Shown one piece after another: positions 7,089-61,546 of a DNA stretch of 64,000 bases (position 1 is its first letter; the number at the start of each line of letters is the position of its first letter). The DNA is from Rhizodiscina lignyota (taxonomy: Eukaryota). Below the pieces are notes generated by a model. The model was not told where the DNA came from. It made no database searches and saw only the letters and a list, made by a program, of their open reading frames with translations. The stretch spans positions 1,612,001 to 1,676,000 of the forward strand of contig ML978126.1 in assembly GCA_010015805.1 (NCBI GenBank), read 5' to 3'. The position numbers were made by a program, and so were the translations under genes.

Positions 7089-7118
7089 CCTGAGCTCAGG
7101 GCCCTCTGAGTATAAATA
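7089..7118 (+). promoter_or_regulatory. Promoter of U2-like copy 1: palindrome CCTGAGCTCAGG plus TATA box
   Basis: Perfect 12-bp palindrome at 7089-7100 and TATAAATA at 7111-7118, about 40 nt before the U2-like 5' end. The same arrangement recurs at 60238-60267. Confidence 0.65.
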
Positions 7119-7155
7119 CCTCCCACTCTTCCACCTTCCTCCTCTTTTCTTCTTC

Positions 7156-7346
7156 AGTTCTCTTTGCCTTTTGGCTTAGATCAAACGAAGATTTTGTTCT
7201 TCACAGTTTAATCTCTGTGACAAGACTACGGTCTTTTCCTTGATTATTCAAATATTTGGAACCGGGTGATGATTCTTTGGGCTTTGCTCCGAGGCTTCAA
7301 AGCCACAGTGTCGCCGGTATTGCACTATCTCCGGCCGACGCGAACC
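7156..7346 (+). ncRNA. U2 snRNA variant, copy 1 (branch-recognition sequence GAAGAU instead of GUAGUA)
   Basis: The 5' end TCTCTTTGCCTTTTGGCTTAGATCAA matches fungal U2, followed by TGTTCTT. Stem IIa CACAG-TTTAATCT-CTGTG; stem IIb AAGAC-TACG-GTCTT; IIc partner GATTA; Sm-like AATATTTGG; SLIII region; SLIV GCCGG-TATTGCACTATCT-CCGGC. Length about 190 nt, followed by a T-rich tract. Ends are approximate. Confidence 0.9.
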
Positions 7347-10300
7347 TCCTCACTCTTTGTTTTTTCAGTGCCTCGTCTGCCTTGCGCTGGCGATCATCGA
7401 AGAAACCTTTGAAATTTTCCTTTCAATTCCTGCTTTGAACTCCCTTGATCCCTATGCTACTATGATACAATGATACTTTCAGGCTATACCTTGTATCTGC
7501 TACCATCATACTATGCCCATGTTTCAGTTTAAACAGTGGCTGGTAAGGTAGGGAATGTGAGGCGGCTGGTAGATGTATTTTGCTGAGCGTGAGATCATTA
7601 CTATCAGCGGCGTCGTATGGGTTTACATAACAATGAGTAAATAAGACCCATAGCTTGTAGACGCACTGAAGCCTAAATGGTAGCTATACCAGGTATGCTT
7701 GATTGTAGGGCCGTGATATTCGTGTTCGAGTAAAGTAATTGAGCAAAACAGAATGTGAAGTCGTGAGCTACAGTCTTAAGGTGGGCTCCTTGCAGCCACT
7801 AGTGAGATCTAGCACTAGTTCCTCTCATGGAACATACATCTCTACATCTCTAAGAGCTTTAAATGCTGAAATAATATGTTGAGTTGACTGTCGGCTGTAG
7901 TTGTGGTGGTGATCAGAGAGTAGGAAAAGATGGTGTTGTGAACATCACAGCTGGAGGTGGCAGCGGCAATGTGTACATTTACTTTATTGTGCAGATCGGA
8001 AGATCTATCGTTAAGGAAGTTCTTAGTATCCTGTTATGCATCTCAACTACTTCGACGTTGATGTTGTGGGCAAGTGACTTCTTAGTAGTATTCTGCAGCA
8101 GTATTCTCGCGGTCCAGGCTCACCCACAAACTCGAATTTCGATGGTTATTATTGGCAAAAGACCCCCTCAGTTATAGTCTGGCGCTTCTATATTGAATTA
8201 AGATATATATGTCCATCTTTCAGCTAACCTCTGCGTAAGTAGAACGACAGAAAGCTTTCCATAACCTCCTTTCCTAGCCTTAATGCGACCGATTCCGTTG
8301 TAAACAACGCCGTCAGCCAGACGAGCAGCATATTTCAGACATGAGGAGTCTTTCAACATAGAAAGACGTCAAAATAACCTTTGACGAAGATAAGAACGAT
8401 AAATACTGGTACTGATTCGCCTACTCATAGCAGAATACCCATCGTCGCGATCGGTATCCTATACGCAAATCCAAAACAGTTTCCCATCCAGCGCCGCCTA
8501 ATTTATCCCCTCGGGAGCTCAGCTTTATATTCAACGAACTGATACACGCTGAGGCAGAAGACTAATACATCCCATATGCTAATGCGCTGCTAAAGCTTTT
8601 ACTTATCACAAACGACACCTTCGAAGCATAGTCTTGTCATCGGACCACACAAACACCATTCGAACTTCATTTCCAATCGCCACCTTTCTTTGTATCTTCA
8701 GTAATCCTCTGAAGATATTGAGCAGCATGCTGTCTTCCTATGCGGCTACACCAATCTTCAAAGCGATGCTTCTTGACTATGTTGACGAGTACAAGCTCAA
8801 GACGCTACTAAAATAACAAGATCTCAAACAGGTGACTTTACCTGAGCCTATCTCACTGGATGTTTGGCTGATTGAGACAGAATTCTACTCCCACCTCTTC
8901 CTCCATATTTGCAGCCCGAACTCGAATACACGGCACCCAGAAATACCTCGAACATAACAATCAACACCAAGTCTTGATAACTGGACTCGTGGCGCGGATT
9001 GACGCCGAATACCTTGCCTCTCCTCGAGCAATACACACCATATCTTCAGTCAAATGGAGTTCATGATCTAGACAACCACAAATTTGATAGTAACTTTGTG
9101 TCAGTATCTTCACTGGAGTCGAAGAGATACAACTTGACCTCCAAACTTTGGTCAATGAACTTAGAAGTCAATGTTGGCAGAAACAACACCGAAAATGGAC
9201 TGAAGAAGACAAGCTGGTACAGTTGAGGAGAGAGAAGAGAAATGGAAGCGTGATTGGGCAAGGACAAAGACATAACGCGCTGGGAAGCAAAAGTTTCTCA
9301 AACATGGAGCATTCCAGCCACGGACTTGGGATAATGGCCAAGGTACTCGCAGAGTAGTAGATAATGCTTCATTCTAAGTCTACTGCCCATTGCTAACTGC
9401 TGCTAGTAAATAGTTCCAGCTTCTCCTGACCATTTCCCACTGCAATTTAAATCCCCCTTCTGCATCCATCTCCTGCTCGAACTACAAATGTCATTTCTCC
9501 ATCCGGCGACTAGTACCCAGTGTAGAAGCGCATTTGCATCAAACGTGGGAGCAGATACAAACGCAGCTTTAGATTGAAGGCGTACTAGGCGGATAGAGTT
9601 AAACGGTCATGGAGTGGAAGAAGAACAGTTCTTAAGATTTTGAGCTAAACTGGCGTAGAGACTGTGGGCTTCGGAAGGAACACTTAGCGAAGCCATAAGT
9701 TAGACCGAGAAGCATGAGAAGAATGGAATGGTCTAGAGGAAGTTATGATCTTGCTCGGCAGGGGATATTACAGATCTAGCTGGTAAATTCTGACACGATC
9801 ATCATGTCTGGATAGACAATGTACAGCTATTCTACTAGCTTATCGTTGTACATCTAAGAAAATGACCAATGACGGTGTGGGAAAGCTACATCGGTGATGT
9901 CGAGAAGACCACTAGTATACCGATAACCACCTCCCCTTTGGAGGATGGTACGAGCCCTCTAGAACATCCTTCGCAAGCGTTAGAAGACGATGCCGAATTG
10001 ATTAGTCTACTTTGCAGTTATCTCTGTCAAGCGAATACCGCATTAGGTTAGCGCTTCCAATGTGAGGGCTCTTTGATGGTGCCTTGCTTGCATCCCACTA
10101 ATCGCGACCACCTTTGTGGCTCCCCAGCTACCACACTTCTATTCCAGGTCTTATTTTGATTTTGATTATCTTCTGCGGCATGCGGCGCTGCAGTGCGGCC
10201 CTTTTGCGATGGATCGGAGGCCGAACATCTTTGACTCGGATTACTGAACCGGAGCTACCGACTCGCAGCACAATTATACCTGACTCCAAGGTCGAAGAAC

Positions 10301-21314: not shown

Positions 21315-23453
21315 GATATTATTGGAGAGATGTTATTTCTGTTTGTGCTATAGGTCAGTGGAAATATCAACGGCTTCAATTTCATGACGACGAACCAATG
21401 TTGGAACCGTTCTTCTTGCGGCGAGACGGATCGTGGGAATTACCTACTGAACAACTCTGGGAAAGCCATGACATATGGACCTAATGCTCAAAAATGTGTG
21501 GGAGTTGTAGTGGTTCTCTGATTCAAGCCCGAAGATGAAGCTGTGGGTACTTGTATCTTGCACACTGACTGGCACAGAAGACTGGTCTGCTGGAACAAGT
21601 CGATATTGTATTCACGCTCGCGGCTCAGAGCTGCACAGAGGTTTTGAATTGAAGTTTGAATACAGCATACCCTTCAAAACTCGAGGTATTCAGCCATTGT
21701 CCCCTGTTGTTACACCATCTGACCTTTCATTTCAACCGTCTCTCCCTGTCTCAGTTGTTGCCCTTATTGTATTCGAAGCGGGGTTCTTGTCAAATTTGCT
21801 GTAGTGGCTTCTGGAAGGAACTGGATTGCCCTAAGCTGTGCTGCTGTAAGTTGATTGAATCGCCGCTGCATATTCCAAGCTAAATGACCGAATCTTTGCC
21901 TACGTACCTCATTTCTTATGCCTGGGATTCTTCGAGTCGCGTTCCATTCGCGATTTTAAATCCTCCGAGTCGCGTTCCAAGTTTGCTTTCAAGTTCTCCA
22001 GGTAGTGATGCTCGATAGATCCAGGAATAGGAGCACTCATCCTCATCGAGAAATTATGATATGCCTGTAAACCCATCTTCCACGAGAACCATGCTTCATG
22101 TAAACAGCTCAGTCGCCAGACTGGCTCACAAGGCACAAAATTACTGAAACTTTGGCCTTGTTTGATAGAGGATCGGTCCATTGTGCGGCTACACCTGCTT
22201 TGTTCAAGATTGTTTTGGATGTTGTTCTCGGTCGTCTGTATAAAGTCTTATCGTCAAGGAGGCAGGAGAGGAGAATGTACCTAGATTTGACATGGTGAGT
22301 GAGCAGATATCATAATGACTGTGGTGCGAGTGAAAATGCTATGTTACTCACGATGCGAACGTTGTCCCTGGTCGCGAGGTTTGCGCGATTTAACTTGGCT
22401 GTTATGATGAAAGCTTTTCCACTTCCAATCTCTGGCTAGACGTGAAGACTGGAACTTGCATAGCATTGACGAACAGGAAAGATCTTGTGAGAGTCCGCGG
22501 GATTCATTTGTCGCGAGGCTCTGGAGGTGTTGACTAGGGAACAGGCGCTCGACGCTCGACGCTGGTGAAAACTGAAGTCGTAACTATGGATTCTATGCTC
22601 AATTTCAAAGTAAATTACTCACGGATGATTTTGAAGCCAATTCTTGTACTGAGCTGTTGTTAGGCCACAGTCCTTATGTTTGTAAAGGTGCACGCGGCGG
22701 AAAGAGCTTCTATCGGCTGGAGTGAGCTAGTTTAAAGATGTAATCTACAGTTGACTGTACTTTGAAGCATTCGAGACACTCATATATGCATTATCCAGTA
22801 GTGAAGCTCTTGGAATTTAAATAATGAAGCGCAAAGGCTCAAAACGCTTTGTGGGCGCCCTTTTGCAGCCGTCGATTTTCAACACCAAGCTGACCAAAAT
22901 ATTCCAAAGTACCAACCTCCGAAAAGACTTCATTACACATAGAAATTTTGATAATCAGAAGCGCCCTTGCAGGTCTATGAAGGAATAAAGGTGAACTGAT
23001 AGGCATTCGTCTATTTAATAAGAGTCTTACTGCTAAAGCCTAACGCCAGCTGTTCTCAGCTTCAACCGTGATTCCTACCGTAACAACGCGCCCTAGAACA
23101 GCTCTAAAGCTCTCATAATAGTTCATAGCAGCACATGAGACTTATTAAAGACTTCATAATCGGTTCTATGACTAGGTCTACTCTACAATTTGGTATAAAC
23201 TAATGTAACTCAAGTGAGATTACGGCTACAGCGATAACAGCTACCTGCGTAAATGCATTACTCATGTTTCCAACTGCATATGCTCTACATTCAAGTATTG
23301 CCAGTTGCTAAACTTCCTATAATACGACATCTGGGTAGGTAGAGGGCTTGACAAGCTTAAGTATTGTTCAATGTTTAATCATAGTTCTTTGTGCTTTCTT
23401 CGCCATGCCCCTATACAAGACAGAGGAGATAGTGAAAAAGATGAAAGATTGAA

Positions 23454-23641
23454 GAGTCGCGTCAGCCGGAGATAGTGCAATACTGGCGACACTGTGAGAG
23501 ATAACATGCCTAAGGGCAGAGGAGACCTCTCGAGTTCAAAAGATTAGAATAATCAAGATATAAGACCGTAGTCTTGTCACAGAGATTAAACTGAGAAGAA
23601 CAAAATCTTCGTATAATCTAAGCCAAAAGGCAAAGAGACGT
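23454..23641 (-). ncRNA. U2 snRNA variant, copy 2
   Basis: The reverse complement reads ACGTCTCTTTGCCTTTTGGCTTAGATTATACGAAGATTTTGTTCTTCTCAGTTTAATCTCTGTGACAAGACTACGGTCTT..GATTATTCTAATCTTTTGA..GAGAG..TGCC-CTTA-GGCA..CTCTC..GTCGCCAG-TATTGCACTATCT-CCGGCTGAC. A TATA-like run lies at 23678-23687. Confidence 0.88.
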
Positions 23642-24335
23642 GAGGAAGAAAAGAGGAGGAAGGTAGAAGATTGCAGAATATATATATCAATAGGAACGTT
23701 GAGGAACCCCTAGAGGGCCCATAGCATCACCCTAGGAGACTAATAGCATCGGCTTCCAGCGGGGGTTATGGAGCCGCAGCACCTTGCTACACATTGCGTG
23801 CATCCTTCGATTGGCGTGGCTGTCTGCCGTGGCGGTGTCGGGCTAGGAAAGTTCAAATCTGCGCTTCTAAATGTTGAGATGTTGGCAATTATCGTACACA
23901 ACGCAACGCAGTAAAAATTGCAATCATATAGGAAGATTGGCCATAGTCGAAAGTATCTCGCATTAAATTTATAGAAAAAACGAACCACTATATGGGGAGT
24001 AAATGCTCCTGAAGAGAGGACTCTTCGACTCTCCATCGACCACCACACTTCCATTTTAGGCTAGGGATCAACAAGCGGAGGCTGGGGCGGAGCTACCCGC
24101 CGCTTGTGCGCCATTTTAGCTTTGTAGAAGGTCCGATGACACCCGAAATCACCTGTGAAGACACTGAGTGATACTCGCGGTTTCGGCAGACCAGCGTGGA
24201 CGCCCAGAGGGGGACCGGTAATTCGTACTTCCGGACCGAAACCCAAACCTTCACCCGCAGCACCAGTCATCGCCGCAGCTTTCGTCTGGCCTCTAGCCTC
24301 CATCAGAACGCTCATCTGGCCTATTTCCCTGCTCA

Positions 24336-58344: not shown

Positions 58345-60237
58345 GGTGAAACTTGAAAAGCGGAGTGTTGTTGCGAGGAAATGGAATCGCGAGGATGTGT
58401 GGGCGTGGTTGACTATTGACGGACAGAATCGCATGAAACAGCTTTTTCGCGATGAACATTCTTCCGTTGCCGAATGAAGCCATGGATATCGTGATTTTCC
58501 CGCTGTGTCCCCAGGTGTCGAAGATATCGAGAGTCATAAGGTCAAGGTATAGATCTTCATAGCCATGATATTGCTGCTGCTTTCTATACAAGAGGGTCTT
58601 GTTGAGTGAGTAGGCTGTAGCGTCGGCTCGAAAACGTCTAACATTTTGTGTTCTCACAATCAATAGGACTTGAAGGCATCGCAGGAATGAGAAGACGGCT
58701 TAGTATATTCTATCTACTGCTCCAAGCAAATCTTTGGCTGTTATCGACGTACAAGAAATCCAACCAGTTGTACTTAGACTACCGCCCATAATCAATGCCT
58801 CCAAAAGAGTTTTCCCAACGACCGATCGATGGCAGCTCTACAACTACCAAGCCCTTATATATTCATTTCTCCTAGCATTTCTCGTGATTGCCTGTGATAT
58901 CGGAGACGTATAAGGAAGGAGTAATCGTATAATAGAGCAGAGCGGTAATGGGAGCCGACTACTAGGTAATAGGATAGCAGTGTCTGTGTCTAGTTAGCTA
59001 AATATAACAAATATCCTCGATTGTTCAAAGGCACTCAAAATTCTAGAGAATTGGCTATAGCCTCTTAATGCTAGAATCGGGATTCTCGAATGGCTTTAGT
59101 CAATACATCTAGAGAAAGGCGGGAGTAAATCGCAAGAAGAATAGTTTGTATAATATCACAGTCAATGAAAGAAGCATTCGCCGGCCCGACCAATTAGAGG
59201 TGGATCGGAGTCTGCCCCTATGATATGATCAATTATCCTTTAACCAGCACGACGGCAACAAAGCATAAAGGTATACAGGAGCTGGTGTGGGTATAGACAT
59301 ACTTCAAAGTAATCCCTTCGTCAACCTCCTGCTCAAGGCAGAAGAATGAATGAAAAGATAAGTTGTAGCCAGCAAGAATTAAGCCGAGGAATCCGGACAT
59401 TGTGCAAGATCTGGAGACCACGACCGCATCAGCTCATGCGGAGGGTAGTGGACATTCTTAGACGTCCACTCCGCAGCCATGTAGTATGAAACAAAGAAGA
59501 AGAAATTTCCAAAAGGGGACTATCCAGGTTCAAGAGCAGCACGCGCAATCATAGGGCCGTGTGATCACTTGTGCAGTCAAGAATGGAGCTAGTCACGTCA
59601 GACACACCTCGATGAAGTCTAGTCCATTGTACTTGTAACTAAATGGGAGACATTTCTCATTTCGGGTTAAGATCAGCTGTGATTTCGGCCCAACGTGGCT
59701 GGGAGGCCCCCAAACCCACAAGCTAAATGGAGGTTGGGCTGAAATCTTAGGTGTCTGGACCCCGAGGACCCATATAAACAGGGAATTGCAAATCCGGTGT
59801 ATTCTGAGTGGGTTCAAGAGACATGGCCGAAGACAAAGCGCTGGTACATAGTCCTAGTTCAACAGATAGTAACGAAAGGTTTCTTTGTTCTGTCTAAGCC
59901 GACATTTAGAATCAGATATAAGCATTCTTGATAATTCTTTCATACCAAATCTGGCTCTTTAGTCGAGATCAATGGCAGTACTTAGCCTACATAGCACTTC
60001 TAGCATAGACTTAAAACCCAAAACAATCCTCCCACTGCAATATCTCCCTAGATGTGTGGGAAGGCAGAGCTCCGGCCTCTGCCACGTGCTTCCCAACCTC
60101 TGACATCTAGCGACACATACCGCATTTGGCATAGCTCCAAAATAACAGCATGTCGATCCTGTGTATACATCCCTGACCCTATGACTCCTCCGAAAGCCTA
60201 ACCAGGCCTTGCCCGGAAAAACTAAAGTCCACGGTGG

Positions 60238-60267: not shown

Positions 60268-60303
60268 CTCTCACTTTTCGACCTTCCTCCTCTTTTCTTC
60301 TTC

Positions 60304-60495
60304 AGTTCTCTTTGCCTTTTGGCTTTGATCAAACGAAGATTTTGTTCTTCGCAGTTTAATCTCTGTGACAAGATTACGGTCTTATTCTATTGATTATTCT
60401 AATATTTGGAACCGGCTTTGGTGGTTCAATGAGCTTGCTCATTTCCCATCGCACAGTGTCGCTGGTATTCGCACTATCTCCAGCTGACGCGACCC
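60304..60495 (+). ncRNA. U2 snRNA variant, copy 3
   Basis: AGTTCTCTTTGCCTTTTGGCTTTGATCAAACGAAGATTTTGTTCTTCGCAGTTTAATCTCTGTG...; Sm-like AATATTTGG; SLIII tip GAGCTTGCTC as in canonical U2; SLIV GCTGG-TATTCGCACTATCT-CCAGC. Confidence 0.9.
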
Positions 60496-61546
60496 TCTTT
60501 TTCATCTTTGGTTCCGCCTTGAGTGGGACAATGAGGAAGAAGATCTTGTCTCAAAAGTTCTCTTCAATCAGTCCAATTGTTTTCGCGTGCTTGCTCCTAT
60601 GCTTGCTTGCTATATCCTTTGCTTACTTACTTGCTATGCCTGCAGCAATTTTGTTGTCATGTTAAGGCTTGTGGCTTGGTGTGGAGGCTCATTTGTGGTC
60701 TTTAAGAGGCCTGTTCGAGAAAGCATGGCATTTTGATAAATAGATAGATAGATCAGGACCAACTATGAAGAAGCCTTGAAATGCAAATAAAAGCAGGAGT
60801 ACTCTTTCATTAGCTTAAACTTTGGGCCTACTTCTGCCTTGTGCTTATTGCTAGTGTGGTAGTAGTCCGTCGATTCCCATAACAACGTGTATGAATTGCA
60901 CCATCTCTACGCCCTCCACGGCCTGTTCCCTAGAGCAGGAAAACCACTGATCCCAAAGCATATGGACTGACAGTTCAGGATTCAGATATCAGTTCATGAG
61001 TTCGTTTGCCTCAAAGCATTGATTGTCATCTATCTGTTGCCTGACCCTTTCGTCGCTACTGCCATTGCACATCGCGCTACAGGAGCTGGCATACACCATC
61101 AGCACATAAACGCACTCAATCAAGGCCGGAATCCCTATGTTGGGTAGAACTGCTTGCTTTGGTTGGTAGAAGCAACGAATGGTCATCATATCCATGAATC
61201 TGCTCTGCTGACTTCATTTGTAGTCTCGCGTCGGGCCACTCCCGTATGTTACAGTAAAATAAACACCAAAACGCCACGCCCATTTCTTCCAGGTTGCAGC
61301 TCATTAAGTGCAAATCCACAGGACTGCGAAAGACGGTGATAAGCCCGTTACCATTCTCTTATCGGCCTTTCAAGCCCATTACAAGTTTGATCTCGCAGTA
61401 AGATCTCTTCTTGTTTCCGCTGCCACCATGGGTGATGGGTAAGTCTGCTCTCCCAAAGGCGCTAAACATCCAATAGTTCGTGTTGAATTCCTATAGCCAA
61501 ATCTGACAAGTCTCCCAACTTCAAAGGCCAGAAACTGCCACTCCCC

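Follow-up and report, generated by a model that had tools for sequence, protein, structure and literature searches.

A clustered family of U2-derived snRNA genes sharing a rewritten branch-point recognition block

Three U2-like snRNA genes are present in the window, the whole 64-kb stretch of DNA analysed here. As judged from their sequences, they belong to a clustered U2-derived family that shares one conserved block replacement and is evolving under U2-like constraint. The motif affected, GUAGUA, is among the most invariant RNA motifs of eukaryotes and sets the choice of branch adenosine by the major spliceosome; it reads GAAGAU in three of three copies. The window copies are U2 genes by homology, and non-canonical U2 by this defining feature. 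We tentatively favor, with a probability of roughly 0.35–0.4, a reading in which they serve U2-type snRNPs whose branch specificity is altered to the (A)UCUU-A-C type.

U2-like genes and the replaced block

The Rfam U2 covariance model (RF00004, gathering score 46 bits) matches copy 1 with 106.8 bits (E 1.4e-20, model 1-192/192), and copies 2 and 3 with 101.3 and 98.2 bits, both from end to end. These full-length matches, at 98–107 bits across the three copies, bear out the initial annotation, which had read 7156..7346 as a U2 snRNA; canonical fungal U2s from metagenomes score 112–134 bits among the matches listed. At E<=1, no RNA family besides U2 is matched by Rfam in the whole 64-kb window, and a tRNA search of the same DNA returned none. 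Matching variant genes for U1, U5 and U6, which had been proposed as partners worth seeking, are thus absent from the window at this threshold, as are variants of U4, and U12, U11, U4atac and U6atac likewise have no Rfam match there. Identity as U12 was rejected, RF00004 being the best and sole Rfam match. The features of the genes are as follows, element positions being those of copy 1.

7154..7349, + strand: copy 1 of the U2-like snRNA gene (limits taken from the Rfam match)
60302..60498, + strand: U2-like snRNA gene, copy 2 (RF00004; block at 60333-60342)
23451..23642, - strand: U2-like snRNA gene, copy 3 (RF00004; block at 23603-23612)
7111..7119, + strand: TATA-like element GTATAAATA, present in all three copies and ending ahead of the Rfam start, at a distance of 35-43 nt
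7128..7153, + strand: conserved stretch rich in pyrimidines, separating the TATA-like element from the gene and nearly invariant in the three copies
7185..7194, + strand: rewritten branch-point recognition block ACGAAGATTT (canonical U2, GTGTAGTATC)
7251..7259, + strand: Sm-site-like AAUAUUUGG, deviating from canonical AUUUUUG
7265..7305, + strand: stem-loop III (SLIII), from the Rfam alignment and single-sequence folds, its sequence turned over
7308..7342, + strand: stem-loop IV (SLIV), loop UAUUGCACUAU, from the Rfam alignment and folds
7361..7384, + strand: downstream block TTTTTCA...TCTGCCTTG, common to the three copies

The three genes sit in intergenic gaps of ordinary gene-bearing DNA. 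Open reading frames around them include a protein kinase, a weak fungal-kinase match, PigL_N, NmrA, nitronate monooxygenase, an amino-acid permease and MFS, with sugar transporters also nearby. This gene content, together with short introns, suggests a filamentous ascomycete. The window is neither repeat-rich nor AT-rich; GC is 43–57% per 2-kb window, with its minimum near the U2-like genes.

Over stem I and the U6-pairing helix I segment (GCUUAGAUCA), copy 1 is identical to the fungal consensus. Copy 2 carries A>T (A>U in the RNA) at the helix I bulge position (7178-equivalent), and copy 3 carries C>U at the 7182-equivalent (helix Ia) and A>U at the 7184-equivalent. Stems IIa and IIb are present in all three copies; relative to canonical U2, stem IIa shows U-A>C-G and U-A>A-U, the extended stem being altered on both strands. 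In every copy SLIII makes a stem of two parts, in the Rfam alignment as well as when folded alone, and SLIII together with SLIV and its conserved loop, as expected of U2, is found in the window copies. Within SLIV, copies 1 and 2 differ by a double change (CCGG/CCGG to CTGG/CCAG). A hand count on the Rfam alignments gives 38–40 standard pairs per copy for the 45 base pairs of the model. The Sm-like site, for which A U4-6 G is expected, is AAUAUUUGG in two of the copies and AAUCUUUUG in the third. A similar TATA-like element lies 39-47 nt upstream of the canonical U2 at metagenome locus L068, and a TTTTTCA-type motif is found downstream of canonical fungal U2s as well (among the matches listed). 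The downstream block at 7361-7384 is possibly a 3'-end signal.

In copies 1–3 the RNA block ACGAAGAUUU replaces the U2 model consensus GUGUAGUAUC. Its context in copy 1 is GATCAA-ACGAAGATTT-TGTTCTT, with GAAGAT at 7187-7192; copy 3 has GATTAT (RNA GAUUAU) instead of GATCAA directly upstream. The initial annotation had described U2 landmarks on both sides of a 10-nt replaced block, with GAAGAT recurring at 23605-23610 (-) and 60335-60340, and all of these were recovered on the sequence. As the flanks and the 10-nt spacing are canonical, the block is a replacement and not an indel shift; an origin by indel or alignment shift was ruled out on the same grounds. Six of the ten block positions are changed, three of them within the GUAGUA hexamer, and each of the six (7185, 7186, 7188, 7191, 7192 and 7194) departs from a residue shared by 100% of the 79 unique canonical U2s among the matches listed. 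Repeat-induced point mutation was dropped as a cause, given three transversions among the six changes and the identity of the block in diverged copies.

The comparison set was drawn from metagenome contigs with a pattern that left 7184-7194 (11 positions) free and required a fungal stem IIa. It found at least 116 loci, and 116 of the 116 matches listed read the canonical AGTGTAGTATC, in agreement with the earlier statement that GUAGUA is essentially invariant in U2. After removal of 27 of these listed loci for short flanks, 89 were comparable, and exclusion of 10 duplicates left 79 unique sequences. A comparative study from 2026 (PMC13685798) likewise describes GUAGUA as strictly kept in all eukaryotes examined, save for a few substitutions in two sponges. 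The three window copies are 73–76% identical to the listed canonical fungal U2s over ~190–240 nt. Zero metagenome matches were obtained to a pattern of U2 stem I, GAA at positions 33–35 and UGUUCUU, and zero variant-type U2s in pattern scans of the prokaryote-genome and viral collections; these variant patterns demand exact flanks and would miss diverged relatives.

Introns occur in fungal snRNA genes. One metagenome locus of the comparison (L034:400-450) is a canonical fungal U2 of 133.8 bits with a 49-nt insertion in stem IIb, which starts with GTATGT, contains GCTAAC, ends in AG and looks like a spliceosomal intron within the U2 gene. Locus L033 has other sequence in place of the SLIV region from GGTAAGT onward, possibly a second such intron.

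Divergence, constraint and further copies

Pairwise identity between the copies is 89–92% in the 5' domain and 84–89% in the SLIV region (7306-7349), 42–56% in the Sm-SLIII region (7254-7305), 61–69% in the promoter (-75..-1), 20–36% further upstream, and 20–57% in the outer flanks, which are barely alignable. Among gene columns, 73 are at least 95% conserved in the 79 canonical U2s (matches listed), and all copies keep the consensus in 58 of these. The 15 exceptions are listed here.

7185, 7186, 7188, 7191, 7192, 7194: block positions shared by the copies (6 of the 15)
7218: A>T in all copies, in the 3' strand of stem IIa; the position it pairs with, 7203, is A, G or T
7254: Sm-site U replaced by A, A and C (T in 100% of the 79 canonical U2s among the matches listed)
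7178: copy 2 alone, helix I bulge A
7182, 7184: copy 3 alone
7203, 7281, 7285, 7286: the remaining four

Differences between the copies fall in 8 of the 73 conserved columns versus 30 of the 64 variable columns of the canonical U2s listed (Fisher p=3e-6). The search pattern itself fixed 33 of the 73 conserved columns, and with these removed the counts are 8 of 40 versus 30 of 64 (p=0.0066). In a tree with 7183-7196 masked, the three copies group together as a single clade (99/99) within the canonical fungal U2s, an exact placement that is unsure given the short alignment and long branches. The clade stem branch is 0.23 and the copy tips are 0.13, 0.18 and 0.39, versus a median tip of 0.047; by tip length, the copies evolve faster than canonical U2. 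On this evidence the U2-like copies have one origin and are old paralogues, not recent duplicates. As the block is common to all copies, U2-like constraint acted after the rewrite. An origin by retroposition was rejected, the promoter region being conserved together with the gene.

The three copies are probably real genes under selection and functional. The additional U2 family postulated by the initial annotation is to that extent supported, by the homologues, by the rewritten block shared between diverged copies and by constraint that argues against simple pseudogenes; the specialized role proposed for it remains the tentative part.

A further element was found by nhmmer with a profile of the family.

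59298..59408, - strand: partial U2-like relic (nhmmer, E 1.8e-6)

It lies ~0.9 kb upstream of copy 2, may extend to about 59520, and contains an SLIV-like segment and the family downstream block, TTTTCA...TCTGCCTTGAG, with a long hairpin ahead of them. A recognizable 5' domain is absent, as is any Rfam match even at E<=10. The element shows what appears to be decay within the same cluster, and could alternatively be another small-RNA gene using the same 3' signal.

Contigs from sequencing runs were aligned to copy 1 at >=80% likeness, no RNA run being among those listed. The main run (35 Mb of contigs, word share 0.96) is the probable source of the window and so is not independent of it. Its summed depth over the block is 893.5, compared with ~157 for single-copy contigs, giving ~5.7 copies. 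This figure takes in a copy ~18 kb off, on a contig that carries the left part of the window, whose non-canonical block is a different one (7185 is G, 7190 T, 7192 A and 7195 C). The canonical block is absent from main-run contigs aligned across 7185-7195 at this likeness. Summed depth over stem I (7167-7179) is 2325, well above that over the block, which hints at additional U2 copies whose alignments fail to span the block, or at contigs ending at repeats.

Four runs under a second organism label have small word shares with the window. A 177-nt contig from this label aligns to 7139-7217 with 9 differences; with G-A at 7185-7186 and A at 7192, it reads GAAGAA over positions 33–38. It extends into an upstream flank and a stem IIb sequence of its own, and therefore represents a gene and not a mature RNA. 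Of the other runs under this label, one gave no aligned contig and one only a 42-nt SLIV piece (>=80%). The initial annotation had held that lack of expression together with absence of GAAGAU-type U2s from related species would refute the family; the related non-canonical block found under the second label speaks against that outcome. The blocks of the family members thus read GAAGAU, GAAUAA and GAAGAA, with G-A-A kept at positions 33–35.

Candidate targets and role of the family

Introns in the window are short. A heuristic that required a GTRNGY donor, a YAG acceptor, flanking open frames each at least 60 codons long and the absence of read-through gave 41 candidates, many of them false. CTRAY lies 6–45 nt before the acceptor in 12 of the 41, versus 9.6% of random 40-mers, and the clearest short introns have GCTAAT, GCTGAC, GCTGAT or GCTAAC branch sites. 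The CTAAC/CTGAC/CTAAT-type branch sites noted earlier for introns of the window are qualitatively confirmed by these counts, and we infer that a canonical U2 is present elsewhere in the genome.

In the canonical register, an A of the variant stands opposite the purine that precedes the branch adenosine, which makes a canonical branch helix impossible. The target 5'-AUCUU(A)C-3', deduced for the variant block in that register by the initial annotation, is arithmetically correct. CTTAY is not enriched in the candidate introns (3 of 41, versus a background of 4.2%), and AAATCTTACG with at most one mismatch occurs in the window at chance level (4 found, 3.05 expected). Perfect matches in the window to the antisense 13-mer of the block are confined to the three genes, with two further sites at two mismatches. 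A candidate 50-nt intron upstream of the kinase ORF (2813-2862, - strand) lacks CTRAY and has ATCTTAT 30 nt and ACTTAC 11 nt before its acceptor. These sequences are the only approach in the window to the predicted target of the variant, a single case of no statistical weight.

There is strong support for the copies being part of a lineage-specific, multi-copy U2-derived family, lying partly in the window, whose U2 architecture is held by purifying selection. The parts kept are the 5' end, stem I, the U6-pairing helix I segment, IIa, IIb, a two-part SLIII and SLIV with its protein-binding loop, and with the genes their TATA-type promoter and downstream block; the branch-point recognition sequence is replaced. 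Under the reading we favor, the variant RNAs would be transcribed as ordinary fungal U2 and then assembled into U2-type particles. Such particles would not read CURAY sites, A at position 34 facing the purine before the branch adenosine, and may instead engage pyrimidine-rich (A)UCUU-A-C sequences. While unengaged, the block would be held in a hairpin of 5–6 bp with U2 nt 44-48, predicted as follows.

7187..7202, + strand: variant-specific predicted hairpin, GAAGA 7187-7191 with TCTTC 7198-7202, loop TTTTGT

Several points weigh against altered branch specificity. The block differs in the extra paralogue and in the second organism, so that a conserved target is doubtful; the Sm-site U is lost in all copies, and helix I is changed in copies 2 and 3; the family evolves faster than canonical U2; no target introns emerge among the window motifs, their counts being at chance; and the hairpin, if it forms as predicted, would sequester the nucleotides meant for intron pairing. 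A fuller version, in which diversified blocks direct U2-type snRNPs to non-canonical pyrimidine-rich branch sequences as a natural 'orthogonal' U2 system, is an unlikely one. The same hairpin underlies a different and only somewhat plausible account, in which the block, instead of pairing with introns, has U2 nt 44-48 or another snRNA as its partner, and a self-locked, U2-like particle makes no choice of branch site but acts as a decoy or regulator that titrates U2 proteins or U6, or marks a regulatory state. GAAGA (7187-7191) and UCUUC (7198-7202) are exactly complementary; in copies 1–3 the hairpin energies are -5.1, -7.1 and -5.0 kcal/mol, whereas canonical L068 gives +3.4 in the same register, and copy 2 gains a sixth pair. 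For the ordinary register of the branchpoint-interacting stem-loop, the values are -0.7, -0.9 and +4.1 in the copies and +1.2 in canonical U2. In a 28-nt context the hairpin is the minimum-energy fold in three of three copies and takes up 86–94% of the ensemble, but in the 85-nt 5' domain it is the minimum-energy fold in only two of three. Variation of the block among members while G-A-A at 33–35 stays would fit a role other than recognition of a single target, and the deviating Sm site points the same way. On the other side, covariation gives the hairpin no support, the paired positions being invariant across the three copies; T at 7190 in the paralogue ~18 kb away would break a G-C pair, with no compensating change listed; and the C at 7202 is equally explicable as a compensatory partner in the extended stem IIa. 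The block (7187-7193) may share a 7-nt identity with the part of U6 immediately 3' of the ACAGAGA box, a likeness that the version in the second organism would extend on the 5' side and that could be due to chance.

Decay of a pseudogene family, in which one mutated U2 was amplified by local DNA duplication, appears improbable. It would agree with the deviations of single copies at canonical invariants (7178, 7182, 7184 and 7254), with the long tip branches in the tree, with the decayed relic 0.9 kb from copy 2, a sign that copies die in the cluster, and with failure to find the variant in the metagenome, prokaryote-genome and viral collections by exact-flank patterns. It fits poorly with divergence that is strongly uneven and tracks the constraint map of U2 itself, with an SLIII that still folds despite turnover of its sequence, and with a promoter and downstream block that are conserved while the DNA beyond is barely alignable. 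The block is moreover identical in copies that are 0.3–0.6 substitutions per site apart, a related block occurs under the second organism label, and GUAGUA would have returned under gene conversion from canonical U2. That the copies are the sole U2 snRNAs of an organism in whose lineage branch-site pairing was relaxed or rewired is highly improbable. The missing canonical block in main-run contigs across 7185-7195 (>=80% likeness) speaks for it, but canonical copies could be clipped there, or contigs could end at a repeat boundary, and the excess of stem I over block depth (2325 versus 893.5) fits further U2-like copies, if only as a hint. The enrichment of CTRAY among candidate introns (12 of 41 versus 9.6%), with the clearest short introns canonical, also counts against it.

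Relation to known systems

If altered branch specificity holds, introns or other RNAs would be read by a different branch code; alternatively, self-locked decoy particles would be a new way of regulating the supply of U2 snRNP. Automatic 'U2' annotations made by covariance model can conceal RNAs of different function.

The window family resembles canonical fungal U2 (RF00004) in the order of its elements (stem I, helix I, IIa, IIb, Sm-like site, SLIII, SLIV), in a UAUUGCA-type SLIV loop, in the spacing of its TATA-type promoter and in the downstream TTTTTCA. It differs in the block, the lost U of the Sm site, the new predicted hairpin and its faster evolution, and in being multi-copy and clustered, with three genes in 64 kb and at least one more nearby. 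The claim that no fungal equivalent has been described held up in a literature search, mostly of listings and abstracts, which found none. A study of small RNAs in A. fumigatus (PMC2377427) gives two predicted U2 genes and, its supplementary figures aside, passes over the block without comment.

U2s that deviate in this motif are found elsewhere. The U2 of trypanosomatids is without the GUAGUA motif. In such cases (sponges, trypanosomatids) the deviating RNA is perhaps the main U2 of the organism, whereas here a family of paralogues carries a wholesale and conserved replacement in a genome whose introns look canonical. A second reader of branch sites is known in U12 of the minor spliceosome, which has a purine-rich recognition sequence for a pyrimidine-rich branch motif; the role would be similar, but the window family is U2 by sequence and structure. 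Variants of animal snRNAs (human U1, U2, U4 and U5; insect isoforms) are multi-copy and may form variant spliceosomes, according to PMC8457000. Like the window family, they comprise members that differ in sequence; in listings and abstracts, no report was found of a replaced GUAGUA hexamer among them.

To our knowledge, altered-specificity U2s are known only as laboratory constructs. Engineered orthogonal versions of U2 have been made in yeast as well as in human cells. In the latter, an expressed U2 with an altered recognition sequence splices a matching reporter, and only at the complementary branch site, as summarized in PMC13019295. The engineered RNAs and the window variants have in common an otherwise intact U2 with an altered branch-recognition sequence; the former were built in the laboratory and differ from U2 at two or three nucleotides, whereas the latter are natural and diverged, and carry six changes. 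A natural orthogonal system, if real, would in effect give the major spliceosome another, programmable code for branch sites, with dedicated introns or other RNAs. By analogy, if altered branch specificity is the correct reading, the role of the variant family would be that of the engineered orthogonal U2s in natural form.
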